Positions 6,417 through 10,173 of a stretch of DNA of 64,000 nucleotides are shown in pieces. The stretch comes from Candidatus Bathyarchaeota archaeon (GTDB lineage Archaea > Thermoproteota > Bathyarchaeia > Bathyarchaeales > DTEX01): positions 832,001-896,000 of the forward strand of contig CAVQNT010000002.1 of assembly GCA_963714275.1 (NCBI GenBank), written 5' to 3'. Position 1 is the stretch's first letter. Every line of letters starts with the position of its first letter. The translations under genes were made by a program, and so were the position numbers. The notes under the pieces were generated by a model, which was not told the DNA's origin, searched no databases, and saw only the letters and a list, made by a program, of their open reading frames with translations.

Positions 6417-7172
6417 CTATTCGACTTCTATTCTGGGCGCCAAGTAATAGACTAACGTGCCATCGTAGGTTTGTTTGAAGTCGAGGCGGATGGGCATGTC
6501 GTTCGAGAACTCGAGCGTCACAATGTCGGAGGTGGCAACCGCTGCCTTAACAATCTCCGAAAGGTAGCTCAAAGGAAATGTTGACTTCGAAGGTTCCGTT
6601 ACCTCAACAGACAACAGCGCGTCGCTGCCTTTTTTGAGTTCTATGCTTGCTCCCATGATGTCTCCTTTGGCGTTCATCGCCATGTTTTCGCCGTCGGTTT
6701 CCACGCGGACGTGGTCGCTTACTAGCGCAACGTCTTCGAGCGATTGGCGAAGCCCGTCTGTCGTTAAAGTAATCTTCGAGTTGAATGTGATTTTTGGTAA
6801 TCCCTGCTCTTCTTCGGTTGCCTCTAGCGTTGGCATCCTGAATGTGCGGATGTATTTTCCTTTAACCGTCATCACGAATTGTCCTGTGGTTTCGTCCAGA
6901 TAGAGCTCGACGGCTTCGTCTTTTCCTGCCCTTTTGAGGAGCTTCAGCAGCTCGCCCAAGTTCAGGCAAATTTTGGTTTCCTGGTCCGAAACATACTCGT
7001 CGAAGGCTGTTTTCTGCATAGTAAAGTCGACCATGGCTACGCGTGAAGGGTCCATGGCTCTGAGTTTGATTCCTTCTGTGCCTACGACGAACGTGCCTTC
7101 GTCAATAAGTGTCGAGATAGCTGTGACCGCGTCTCTCAGAAGCTTCGCGTCAGACATCCTAATTTTGAACAT
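6417..7172 (-). CDS. pcn: PCNA sliding clamp
   Basis: AMDPSRVAM and YYLAPRIE motifs. Confidence 0.97.
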   Translation of the reverse strand: MFKIRMSDAKLLRDAVTAISTLIDEGTFVVGTEGIKLRAMDPSRVAMVDFTMQKTAFDEYVSDQETKICLNLGELLKLLKRAGKDEAVELYLDETTGQFVMTVKGKYIRTFRMPTLEATEEEQGLPKITFNSKITLTTDGLRQSLEDVALVSDHVRVETDGENMAMNAKGDIMGASIELKKGSDALLSVEVTEPSKSTFPLSYLSEIVKAAVATSDIVTLEFSNDMPIRLDFKQTYDGTLVYYLAPRIEVE

Positions 7173-7290
7173 GACCTATTCACCGTTCGATAATTGTGTG
7201 TGTTTCTATAATTCAATGCACCTAGATTACTTAAATGTTTTAGACAAACCACAATTTAAACAATTTTGTATTGCTGGTTCAGTTTGAATC

Positions 7291-7401
7291 TTAACTAGCG
7301 ATTATTGATTTAATTATTAAACTATGTTTATGAGTATTCTCTGAATGTGTAGTTGCATTTTGTTTTGGCTCATTAGTATTAGCTTCTGGAATACTTGACA
7401 T
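7291..7401 (-). pseudogene. int(N): N-terminal integrase fragment ending in the att repeat
   Basis: ATG at 7401 after purine-rich AAAAGGGGAAAAAGAGAGA; reads MSSIPEANTNEPK-QNATTHSENTHK, translating the att in the same frame as int(C). Confidence 0.75.
7326..7363. repeat. att direct repeat, copy 1 (38 bp)
   Basis: GTTTATGAGTATTCTCTGAATGTGTAGTTGCATTTTGT, identical to 9833..9870. Confidence 0.97.
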
Positions 7402-7491
7402 TCTCTCTTTTTCCCCTTTTTAGCGTGTATATCTCTATCAAACTCCTTTAAATATGTAGCATCGTGTGAGCTGACTTTACTCTAAGCTTTG

Positions 7492-7508
7492 ATTCTAAGA
7501 GTAGAATT
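7492..7508. repeat. Palindromic 17-bp repeat ATTCTAAGAGTAGAATT, copy 1
   Basis: Identical to 8933..8949; ATTCTA-N4-TAGAAT dyad. Confidence 0.8.
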
Positions 7509-7561
7509 TCTGCAAGTCTCTAAGAGTAGAGGCTCTAACTCTAACTAGTGAAGTTAGCTAG

Positions 7562-7819
7562 TTAGTCTCTCATTACTTTTTCTCCACTTTTAAAGGAAAT
7601 AATTGTTGAATCGTCCTCCCAATCTATGTTTCTTTCTCCCATTAATGCAACTCTTACAATAAAGCCCGGAGGTAAAGGCATATGTTCAAAATAAATTAAA
7701 TCGAATCCTTCCTTTCTAAGTCTAGGCATCAATTGATTTGATATATATAGAGAAACAAGTCTTTCGGTTATTCGAGCTTTCCAATTATTTAGTTCGGAAG
7801 GACGAAACGAATATTTCAT
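7562..7819 (-). CDS. Hypothetical protein, probably truncated (element cargo)
   Basis: 85-aa ORF with GGAGA-type RBS; ends at a TAACTAGCTAA junction. Confidence 0.45.
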   Translation of the reverse strand: MKYSFRPSELNNWKARITERLVSLYISNQLMPRLRKEGFDLIYFEHMPLPPGFIVRVALMGERNIDWEDDSTIISFKSGEKVMRD

Positions 7820-8000
7820 TTCTTCTCCCTTATTGTTTATATAGAAATCACTATAAAAATTTTAGTGGCTAGCTAGCTTGATATCAAGCGGGACAGAAAG
7901 GGCTTTTACCTTCCACAAAAGGCAGTATATGGAAAGAAAACACCGAAAAAGTATTAGACATTTTTATGTCTCGTTCAGTATAGCTGAATTACTCACCACT

Positions 8001-8699
8001 CTAGCTAGTCCATTCTAGTGTTAAATTCCATCCTGTTAAAGCAGGTCCATCAAAGTAAACTTTTGAATCTACACTTATCCAAGATTCTCCGTTTATTGTG
8101 CCTAATGTTATGTATGTATCGTTTGCCACAACTCCACCACTTTGATAGAGTATTACATGAATCTTAGAATTATAAGCAGTATTTGTTCCGACATTGCAGA
8201 CGTATCCATAGACTTTAAGATACAGTTTGTCCCAAAACGGTCCATTGTCATCACCCTTCAAATTCACACCAATAAGTTTTGGTGTTATTAAAGTATTAAT
8301 TTGATTCTGCAAGTTTGTAATTTGAGTAGTCAATAAAGAGACTTGTGTATTTAGATCGGATATTTGGTTCTGTAGATTTGTTATTTGCGAATTCAATTGA
8401 TTATTCTGATCCGTGAGTACCAATATTTGCGAATTCAGTGAATCAATTTGAGTATTATAATATGTAATGTTTTCATCAAGCCATGTTTGTAAATAGCTTA
8501 GTAGAGTTTCATTCCGATCCAGCCAACTTTGTAGTTGATTCTTTTGGTTAGTAAGAATTTGAATTTGAAAATCTATACTTTGAATGTAACTATCTTTTCT
8601 GTTCACTGCTACTGCCATTCCTAATAAACCGACTGCTAAAATTATGCACAGTATTACTAGCCCGACGACTTTTCTACTTACAACGTTCTTTTCACTCAT
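8001..8699 (-). CDS. Membrane-anchored coiled-coil protein with C-terminal beta-rich domain (element cargo)
   Basis: N-terminal TM helix, Q/N/L heptads, C-terminal VYGYVCNVG...LGTING domain; GGGGGA RBS. Confidence 0.75.
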   Translation of the reverse strand: MSEKNVVSRKVVGLVILCIILAVGLLGMAVAVNRKDSYIQSIDFQIQILTNQKNQLQSWLDRNETLLSYLQTWLDENITYYNTQIDSLNSQILVLTDQNNQLNSQITNLQNQISDLNTQVSLLTTQITNLQNQINTLITPKLIGVNLKGDDNGPFWDKLYLKVYGYVCNVGTNTAYNSKIHVILYQSGGVVANDTYITLGTINGESWISVDSKVYFDGPALTGWNLTLEWTS

Positions 8700-8932
8700 T
8701 TTATTCCCCCCTTTATATTCGTTATAAAATAAACTCGTATGGCAAAGTGAATAGACCGATTACTATATCTTTTGTTGAAAAGGACATAAATAAAAATTTG
8801 TATTAACAAAGAAGTGTTTTGTGAAAAACTAATACTAATCAGAAAACTGGACTACCAGACAGTAGTGACTAGCATTGAAGCTCAGCTACATGATATGTAC
8901 TCTTCATGCACACAGTTCTCTATGAAGAAAAA

Positions 8933-8949
8933 ATTCTAAGAGTAGAATT
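8933..8949. repeat. Palindromic 17-bp repeat ATTCTAAGAGTAGAATT, copy 2
   Basis: Identical to 7492..7508; both are followed shortly by GCAAGTCTCTA. Confidence 0.8.
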
Positions 8950-9152
8950 AAGTCCTAAGAGCTAGCAAGTCTCTAGAACCTGAGAAGCTAGCTGACTTGA
9001 CCCAAGGTCTAAGAATTTAATTCTATGCATTGAAAAATCATAGTTCAATAGCAACTAAACTGGCTCGTACCTTGTTAACAGCTTCTTTATCTACACCAAT
9101 TTTTTCAAGCAGTTTGAGCACATTTTTACTGTCTGTTATCTTGCTTGCTGAG

Positions 9153-9870
9153 CTAGTACAGCATTGAAGCATAGTAGTGTCTTAAGTCGTAGAGTCTTAT
9201 TCTCTTAAGCTCTGAGTCATGCATCTTCTTAGCTAAGCTAGTTCTCAGTCTTTCAAAGGTGTTGCTGATTGTGGAAGACTTTAGGAAGATTCTGTCGTTT
9301 AAGTTGAAGCTGTGTCTCTTTACATGCTCAACTAACATACATTGAGTGTGAGGTTTTAGCTTTAATATTCTAGGGTTGCCGTACTTTGCTGAGTATACTG
9401 AGACTGTTCCTTTCTCTAAGTCAATGTCTCTGAGTGTGAGGTTTGCTACTTCTATTGGTCTGAGTCCACATTCTTTGATGATTGAATAGATTAGTGCATA
9501 CTTTCTTGAAGCATGTCCAAGCATAAGGTTTACTTTCTCTTCTTTTGGGACTACAAGAATCTTGTGGTCTCTTCTGTACTTTGGCTTATTCCAAGCTAAA
9601 CCATTGTACTTGACATAGTGCTGATAGAAGTCGCATAAGTTTCCTTTGTAGCTACTTGCCCATTTTCCTCTAGCTATGAATATTGAGACATCGCTTGAAT
9701 TATCCAAGTTCATTCTATTAGCTAAGAACATTAATGCCCTTAGCATTGTCTCAAGGTAGGCTTTGGAGTATCCTAGTTTCTCTAGCTCAAAACAGACTTT
9801 GATTATTTTGCCCTTAGATTCGAATGCACATAGTTTATGAGTATTCTCTGAATGTGTAGTTGCATTTTGT
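9153..9870 (-). pseudogene. int(C): tyrosine integrase body, C-terminally truncated
   Basis: CGLRPIE (R), SAKYG (K), YDLRH (R) present; stops at HYYASMLY before the LGH motif and catalytic Tyr. Confidence 0.9.
9833..9870. repeat. att direct repeat, copy 2 (38 bp), forming the 3' end of tfs
   Basis: Encodes TKCNYTFREYS-stop of TFS. Confidence 0.97.
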
Positions 9871-10173
9871 GCATCTGAAGAATTGGGTTGAGGATTCGTC
9901 TGCTCCCCTTGTTTGTACTTGCCAGACGTATGCGGCGTTGTTTCCGCATTTTGGGCATTCAATCGTGGTCGTTGGAAGCGTCTGAAGCTTCTGTTCCTTC
10001 TTGCCGATGACTACTAGATGGTCTCGAGGCTTGGGAGCTGCAACCTTCTGCGTGCAAACGTCAGATTCCACTGACTTCCTATAACTGCATTTAGGACAGA
10101 CAAGATAACAGCCTTTCCCGTCCTTTTTCCGTTTAGCCACGAGACGGGTCTCGCACTTTGGACAAAATTCCAT
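9835..10173 (-). CDS. tfs: Transcription factor S (TFS/RpoM-like)
   Basis: Two Zn ribbons, QTRGADE acidic hairpin. Confidence 0.95.
   Translation of the reverse strand: MEFCPKCETRLVAKRKKDGKGCYLVCPKCSYRKSVESDVCTQKVAAPKPRDHLVVIGKKEQKLQTLPTTTIECPKCGNNAAYVWQVQTRGADESSTQFFRCTKCNYTFREYS

Follow-up and report, generated by a model that had tools for sequence, protein, structure and literature searches.

The 64,000-nt stretch of Candidatus Bathyarchaeota archaeon DNA analyzed here (contig CAVQNT010000002.1), which we call the window, contains between tfs, the gene for transcription factor S, and pcna an insertion that is very probably a decayed integrated mobile element. The element would belong to a family of Xer-like tyrosine integrases that carry the attachment site (att) inside the 5′ end of their own gene. 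In the window, the integrase body, int(C), lies at 9153-9869 behind tfs, and a short open frame with its start signals, int(N), lies at 7364-7401 beside pcna, at the opposite end of the insertion. This is the arrangement of the suicidal class of integrases, and 14 of the 18 relatives in which a distal att could be located share it.

A perfect 38-bp direct repeat (7326-7363 and 9833-9870) flanks the ~2.5 kb between the two genes. No third copy is present in the window with up to three mismatches, and 0 of 100 dinucleotide shuffles matched. The GC content is 0.31-0.38 between the repeats versus ~0.45-0.54 in the flanks. The repeat comprises the last 11 codons of tfs (TKCNYTFREYS), the stop codon (9835-9837), and two further bases. 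The tfs gene itself (9835..10173, minus strand) is intact: its 112-aa product matches PF01096 (E 1.4e-17, 63.7 bits against a cut-off of 21) and scores 75.2 bits with TIGR01384 TFS_arch, above the cut-off of 64.75 that marks membership, and the genome to which the window belongs (G000) has a single tfs match at E <= 1e-10. When the frame is shifted by one base, the proximal, attL-like copy of the repeat (9833..9870, minus strand) reads QNATTHSENTHK, and this frame is open into the integrase body (9153..9869, minus strand), which runs for 238 codons with no internal stop and matches PF00589 (E 6.6e-9). At the pcna end, an ATG at 7401 begins 13 codons, MSSIPEANTNEPK, that enter the identical distal, attR-like copy (7326..7363, minus strand) in frame and are followed by HSLIIKSIIAS and a stop. 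Immediately 5′ of the ATG is a purine-rich stretch resembling a ribosome-binding site (~7402-7420), and a TTTAAA is found at 7447-7452, 46-51 nt upstream; the layout of this int(N) module (7364..7452, minus strand) recurs in relatives. The first-pass annotation, made from the letters of the window alone, had described the repeat with its AT-rich interior, the double reading of the repeat as tfs terminus and integrase start, and the ATG at 7401 with its upstream signals, and all of these hold on closer analysis. Folding of 9823-9880 as DNA gave no notable hairpin or dyad at att (z -1.87). Beyond the distal att are host intergenic DNA with the pcna upstream region (7173..7325), pcna (6417..7172, minus strand; PF00705 and PF02747), and then the gene for the primase large subunit.

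Comparison with related genomes shows what the locus looks like when unoccupied. Among 27 with a complete tfs 3′ end, 15 have an empty site in which pcna directly follows tfs after 72-338 nt, one of them being the same-genus genome G006 (L058). If 7326-9832 is removed from the window in silico, the remainder aligns colinearly with L058 and other empty sites, and the alignment covers the conserved region upstream of pcna. Of the remaining 12 genomes, some are clearly occupied or hold remnants (L064, L068, L070, L057, and L073), two have tfs-pcna gaps of ~830-850 nt (L071 and L072), and others have no pcna within reach. The closest relative, G002, in which TFS and PCNA are each 96% identical, carries a different insert of ~2 kb at exactly the same point, as its homology with the window ends at 9833 and restarts at 7278. 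Indeed, flank homology with relatives stops exactly at the att borders. These alignments support insertion of an element at the tfs 3′ end with tfs left intact, as had been proposed together with a check of relatives for empty sites. The G002 insert (L083 1241-3271) has no integrase body, just a remnant of 22 C-terminal aa, and is akin to the cargo carried by L165, a metagenome contig described below.

The arrangement is not peculiar to the window. A protein search returned 159 integrase homologues, and we surveyed 89 sources, made up of the window, 8 loci from GTDB genomes, and 80 metagenome loci. A junction of tfs and integrase is present in 55 of the 89; 54 of these are distinct, since L147 duplicates L016. 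Beyond the window this amounts to 53 distinct loci, from 8 Bathyarchaeia species genomes and 45 metagenome contigs, in answer to the suggestion that duplicated tfs 3′ ends with split integrase genes be sought in other genomes. Every one of the 8 GTDB loci whose integrase reaches 50% identity has it fused to the tfs 3′ end, and in 6 of the 8 pcna follows 2-7.5 kb downstream. On sequence grounds, then, the window's element is not a one-off but one member of a clade with no fewer than 54 copies at tfs, its own included. According to record titles and run labels, the hosts are Bathyarchaeia of sediment, wetland, and peat. In an even sample of the class comprising 401 genomes, 30 have an integrase relative at E <= 1e-60, and only three (G000, G016, and G320) have one of the tfs type, defined there as at least 58% identity reaching residue 1-3. 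Many database homologues of 317-328 aa start with peptides such as MFGRCKPEAQTNPQLNSCAAQNATTH..., which is the TFS C-terminus read out of frame, and are therefore gene calls on integrated copies. In P0003, P0005, P0007, P0009, and others, the wrong tfs frame has been annotated as a false integrase N-terminus (MFGR.., MNLQ..). At the tfs-integrase junction of L016 (= L147), a 33-nt tandem duplication is seen at 10020-10085, and the integrase is frameshifted.

The distal att could be located in 18 of the 55 junction-bearing loci, many contigs being too short to reach one. An ATG in frame with the integrase, with no intervening stop, precedes the distal att in 14 of the 18, compared with 6 of 18 and 1 of 18 in the two control frames. 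It is mostly found 11-21 codons upstream of att, and the peptides that follow are alike (MAENEKE.., MTETQEA.., MAEKEKE.., MTETQKE.., and MTEKEKE..), with a start resembling M-[T/A]-E-x-[Q/E]-K-E. Among 15 relatives, a TATA-like box occurs at -44..-52 of the int(N) start in 12, often as cTTTTAAGCC, and a GAGG-like motif, judged by eye, precedes the start in all 15. A conserved int(N), the absence of which the first-pass annotation had named as evidence that would count against its proposal, is thus present at most distal junctions, and it is contiguous with the rest of the gene in the database protein P0012 (327 aa, 9 member sequences). P0012 corresponds to L099's distal int(N), att, and proximal int(C) joined end to end; past the N-terminal peptide the two differ at one residue. 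A second uninterrupted int(N)-att-integrase junction is found in L142, with no tfs on the 1.2 kb of upstream DNA; the integrase of L142 is frameshifted.

The protein sequences point the same way. The first helix of the core-binding domain (...KG.IL..A..LR..GYS..YL) follows the att-coded peptide directly, and no start codon separates the two. In the AF2 model of P0012, which has a mean predicted local distance difference test (pLDDT) score of 85, residues 1-33, corresponding to int(N) and the att tail, score <50, and the fold begins at ~34-37. Because no start codon lies between att and the first conserved helix, the sequences and the model argue that translation of the integrase must start upstream of att. 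The att codes for residues ~14-25 of the joined open reading frame, which places attP within the integrase gene, as in the suicidal class. The pNOB8-type arrangement, with att outside the integrase reading frame and a gene that is intact after integration, is not what these loci contain. The claim that att sits inside the gene and that integration splits it is therefore upheld by the 14 of 18 distal junctions and by P0012.

From these data we propose the following cycle. In the unintegrated element, the gene would comprise a TATA-like box ~46-51 nt upstream, a GAGG-type ribosome-binding site, an ATG, 11-21 int(N) codons, ~12 att codons, and the recombinase. The att (37-46 bp) would match the host tfs over its last 11-14 codons and stop, and the integrase would read it in another frame. 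Recombination of the element att with the tfs 3′ end would place the element in the tfs-pcna interval, with tfs remaining complete because att supplies its 3′ end. The integrase body would end up behind tfs, deprived of its promoter, start codon, and first codons, which would come to lie beside pcna. Excision would then need integrase made by an intact copy, either on another element or at a tandem junction, as has been argued for the suicidal integrases of SSV-type elements. The recombination itself, a circular intermediate, and the need for integrase in trans are what we infer from the comparisons above. The copy in the window would no longer be capable of this cycle, with its integrase Tyr lost and its cargo reduced to two open reading frames without a family.

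That the window's copy is dead had also been suggested, and the alignment of its integrase agrees. The catalytic set of tyrosine recombinases consists of Arg, Lys, His-x-x-Arg, His/Trp, and Tyr. In the homologues R137 is invariant and K162 nearly so, and R230/H231, the His of an LGH motif (alignment column 288), and a Tyr (column 297) are also conserved; we take these residues to have the catalytic roles by analogy. The window's reading frame terminates ...RLYDLRHYYASMLY (...ASMLY) and a stop, and homologues run 71 residues further, through NNTLIYTHL. R137, K162, and R230/H231 are retained; the LGH His and the Tyr of NNTLIYTHL are gone. The int(C) is 92% identical to P0002 over residues 1-197, and homology ends at the stop, 9153-9155. 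A frameshifted remnant of the C-terminus downstream of 9153 was considered and ruled out, as tblastn with residues 198-268 of P0002 found only noise in any frame of 8700-9900. The window's integrase is thus a PF00589 member by descent that, judged from its sequence, is catalytically dead because the last 71 residues, including the catalytic Tyr, have been lost.

How this truncation arose is suggested by L165, which contains the same integrase 3′ part at 94% nucleotide identity with a complete C-terminus. The similarity of L165 to the window stops exactly at 9154 and restarts at 7273, and the cargo behind its near-identical integrase fragment is unrelated to that of the window and matches the G002 insert instead. 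In L165 (107-2802), a decayed distal att can also be recognized at 2256-2296, and the ~500 nt beyond it have no counterpart in the window. By these alignments, the window's element arose through deletion or as a chimera, possibly from a tandem array. One such history, which we put forward only tentatively and regard as somewhat unlikely in this specific form, is that two elements stood in tandem at tfs and that an internal deletion brought the first one's integrase body next to the second one's cargo, int(N), and att. The breakpoints in L165 would be accounted for, both att copies are still perfect despite the broken integrase, and tandem junctions do occur at tfs. In such tandem or nested arrays, a second integrase body, either complete or represented by its start, comes after the first element's distal att (L009 12450-13157, L011 16609-16714, L127 10505-10707, and L134 15518-15601), and the middle junction recreates an attP-like contiguous gene within the chromosome. 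However, no relative was found with the window's cargo behind an intact integrase, which leaves the second parent hypothetical, and a simple deletion or replacement within one element explains the data equally.

Several observations weigh against an integrase that is split and silenced upon integration of a free element. Four of the 18 distal junctions (L009, L015, L116, and L134) have no in-frame ATG, though L134 has a GTG at the expected place. P0012, P0016, and L142 could derive from the middle junctions of tandem arrays and not from free elements. The first-pass annotation had called for circular contigs and excision junctions, and neither turned up: terminal overlap was seen in 0 of 80 metagenome loci and no free circle was found, an IMG/VR scan for a free viral or plasmid form gave one weak 24% match only, and no excision joint was listed in four public metagenome runs (X1-X4), in which contigs cannot show absence. 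Finally, 34 of the 54 integrated copies have an uninterrupted integrase body of at least 300 aa, which is odd for a gene silenced by integration.

The last of these observations fits with the idea that the body is still expressed after integration, by transcription running on from the tfs promoter and translation that begins at either an out-of-frame ATG in tfs or a conserved internal Met (..YL.TM.RAL..), in which case self-excision would be possible. The body does lie directly behind tfs on the same strand, and many homologues have been called with ATG starts in the alternate frame of tfs. We nevertheless consider this explanation improbable. The alternate-frame ATGs are found at 17 of 44 occupied sites versus 10 of 15 empty ones, so that they look incidental to the codons of tfs, and on this basis we rejected them as selected integrase starts. 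The window has no integrase-frame ATG in tfs upstream of att, a TTG being the sole candidate start, and L014 has neither ATG, GTG, nor TTG in that region of tfs. An internal Met start would delete the first conserved helix of the core-binding domain.

An ordinary, non-partitioned integrase of the pNOB8 kind, with an att that merely abuts the gene, a start downstream of it, and an open reading frame at the pcna end that is there by chance, is far less probable still. In its favor, int(N) is very short (13 codons in the window), the att-coded peptide is predicted to be disordered, and several database entries start at an internal Met (268-aa forms). The absence of a start codon ahead of the conserved first helix, the excess of in-frame ATGs over both control frames along with the common peptide motif and promoter and ribosome-binding site layout, and the match of P0012 to the join predicted from L099 together leave this explanation largely refuted on the sequence evidence.

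An assembly artefact such as a chimeric join at the conserved tfs 3′ end can hardly account for the locus: mis-joins are conceivable, as att words are 10-50x deeper than the flanks and assemblies break there, but 7640-9862, 6901-7354, and 7339-7808 are represented, differing at few positions, in contigs of other runs, the same architecture is found at the 53 other distinct loci, and flank homology with relatives ends at the att borders. In these public runs, X2 covers 7640-9862 in one piece, and X1 and X4 bridge 9153, such that the truncated integrase together with the window's cargo is reproduced by independent assemblies. No contig crosses a complete att copy. The high depth was measured for the att words of 9836-9873 in X1-X4, which are sediment and wetland metagenomes, and many different continuations past the tfs stop are seen in the same runs. 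Both depth and continuations fit a hot spot that is shared by many strains with different occupants.

The first-pass annotation had called the element SSV-type. The label stands for the logic of gene partition and does not extend to the protein family. Five full-length homologues match PF00589 only, with no match to PF16795 (Phage_integr_3) at E <= 10. A profile search of the PDB places XerA (4a8e and 5hxy; E ~3e-18 to 4e-18) and IntI4 first and also lists XerH and XerD; the SSV1 integrase is absent at E <= 1. Foldseek with the P0012 model gives XerA as the nearest structure (E 8e-12), and no SSV1 integrase is among the best 48 ranks listed. NCBIfam NF040815 (XerA) is matched with E 1e-27 to 4e-30, at 97-105 bits that are far below the equivalog cut-off of 220. 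From these matches we assign the enzyme to the Xer-like PF00589 recombinases and not to the SSV family defined by PF16795. All full-length members among the homologues P0002-P0044 have an extra domain of ~40 aa after the Tyr (columns ~300-345; SATAKT.EEA.KLIE.GFEYV...G.KLFRKRK), which is modelled as a small alpha/beta unit and is not seen in the XerA matches.

The target also differs from that of the SSV-type family, in which a tRNA gene would be expected, as 54 of 54 distinct clade members abut tfs. We built a quick maximum-likelihood tree from 86 integrase bodies, taking the best high-scoring segment pair of at least 240 aa without a stop for each row and rooting at the midpoint; copies that are shorter or carry an interruption, L142, L016, and L134 among them, drop out by this rule, and L147 was omitted as a duplicate. 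All 40 tfs-labelled rows, together with L126, whose contig starts within the gene, fall in one clade (SH-aLRT 93, with an inner node at 98). The sister of this clade (13 rows, SH-aLRT 80) consists of integrases adjoining tRNA genes, where the integrase frame either enters a tRNA 3′ end (e.g., GGTTCGAATCCC..CCGCACCA, which reads GFESHPPHH) or lies against a tRNA gene of the opposite strand. In L131, a ..TEFREYF.. upstream of a tRNA fragment resembles the TFS C-terminus; we take this to be chance, as the homologue L135 reads ..YEGWSFF.. there.

The tfs terminus has properties that would suit such a target. Its last ~60 nt are the most conserved nucleotide stretch among 28 relatives, with a per-site majority of 0.86-0.90 versus 0.5-0.8 elsewhere. 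In a comparison with 27 relatives, conservation at third-codon positions is 0.74 for the final 11 codons (9838-9870) versus 0.54 for the rest of the gene. This makes the tfs 3′ end a stable target of the tRNA kind. The conservation may partly reflect homogenization by the att copies of the elements, with codon bias as the alternative, and integration across species may even homogenize the tfs 3′ end. On balance, we see the case as evenly poised for the broader scenario in which a self-splitting integrase arose a second time, independent of SSV and pTN3, in a Xer-like family of non-thermophilic Bathyarchaeia with att in the first ~25 codons, and in which one clade then switched from tRNA genes to the best-conserved part of tfs, a protein gene that looks essential, making its att code in two frames.

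The remainder of the window's element is cargo and non-coding DNA. An open reading frame of 232 aa (8001..8699, minus strand) has an N-terminal hydrophobic segment and a coiled-coil-like, Q/N-rich repeat, with only sub-threshold coiled-coil matches in Pfam and PHROGs, and one of 85 aa (7562..7819, minus strand) has no match in either. Between the larger frame and int(C), 8700..9152 is AT-rich, non-coding, and without homology to the L165 cargo. Imperfect direct repeats at 7462-7580 and 8905-9025, ~1.44 kb apart, surround both cargo frames; the two share the 17-mer ATTCTAAGAGTAGAATT without mismatch, resemble each other over ~75 nt in a CTAAGAG/CTAGC-rich pattern, and may represent operators, iteron-like sites, or the termini of a nested insertion. 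Across elements, the integrase is the only common content in a tblastx comparison of L142 with 13 elements, and no replication or capsid gene was found by Pfam or PHROGs in L014 or the window. The cargo of L014 consists of small open reading frames without annotation. That of L010 (11361-15871) includes a SIR2_2 protein (E 8e-22), a DUF559 endonuclease-like protein, and a 677-aa beta-propeller/MG2 surface protein, possibly a defence-type load. Elsewhere in G000, contigs C2, C4, C6, and C10 (L002-L008) have seven more tyrosine recombinase matches at 24-31% identity, two of which overlap on C4.

These observations suggest that suicidal logic extends to another family of recombinases, among archaea abundant in sediments and wetlands, and that an entire clade has as its target a gene that codes for a protein of the transcription machinery. 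This would offer a second, independent case in which to ask why self-disabling integrases persist, and, with the quick tree placing the tfs clade beside tRNA-adjoining relatives, a natural example of a switch from tRNA to protein-gene targets. The compact site, 37-46 bp of dual-coding DNA, could make recombinase specificity convenient to study. The tfs-pcna junction is a predictable spot at which to seek mobile DNA in Bathyarchaeia, one element there carrying a SIR2-like gene, and automated gene calls at the tfs-integrase junction should be read with the false N-termini that they create from the wrong tfs frame in mind.

A bacterial precedent for an attP within the integrase coding sequence, with the gene altered by integration, is the intP/attP of Myxococcus phage Mx8. 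There attP lies in the 3′ end of the integrase gene, so that the C-terminus is changed and the promoter and start are retained, and host and target are unrelated to those described here. The closer comparison is with archaeal suicidal integrases. In the passages of PMC8371274 drawn on here, the SSV, pTN3, and pT26-2 integrases are characterized by the PF16795 domain ("Superfamily 25_02"), and suicidal integrases are treated as a single-origin peculiarity of one hyperthermophilic archaeal family aimed at tRNA genes. Like those of SSV1, pTN3, and pT26-2, the tfs-clade integrases have attP within the reading frame and, once integrated, their int(N) at one end of the element and their int(C) at the other; like SSV-type systems they have an att of ~40-50 bp, and tandem and decayed copies pile up at the target (PMC8371274, same passages). 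Unlike them, the tfs-clade enzyme matches PF00589 only, with XerA and IntI4 as nearest structures; its int(N) is far shorter, at 11-21 codons plus a 12-codon att tail, and is predicted to be disordered; and its target is protein-coding, its att is read in two frames, and its hosts are not hyperthermophiles. Protein genes are known as archaeal integration targets, those given in the same passages being the HMG-CoA reductase gene, a heavy-metal efflux gene, and AsnC (PMC8371274).

Of 68 thaumarchaeal elements, 14 are integrated at the 3′ end of a protein gene, and in one element, NitEve-E3, an SSV1-like integrase is split, according to the portions of Krupovic et al. 2019 (PMC6563490) used here. 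As with the tfs clade, integration takes place in the 3′-distal part of the gene and the reading frame is restored. The targets named in those portions are a Zn-finger protein, AsnC, EF-2, several enzymes, and several hypothetical proteins, with tfs not among them; att is short there, down to 8-13 bp, and a clade-wide dual-coding att inside the integrase is not described in them (PMC6563490). Our literature search returned no report of tfs as an integration target, in line with the novelty that had been suspected at the outset; the Zn-finger target AIF83914 (PMC6563490 Table S2) may be TFS-like. The same search found no report of suicidal integrases in Bathyarchaeia, and the passages reached by term look-ups in PMC10541130 and PMC11705971 do not mention tfs. 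Finally, archaeal XerA (4a8e and 5hxy) is the closest known enzyme in both sequence and fold. Unlike XerA, the tfs-clade integrase gene is borne on an element and flanked by att, and its product has the extra C-terminal alpha/beta domain of ~40 aa ending in FRKRK.

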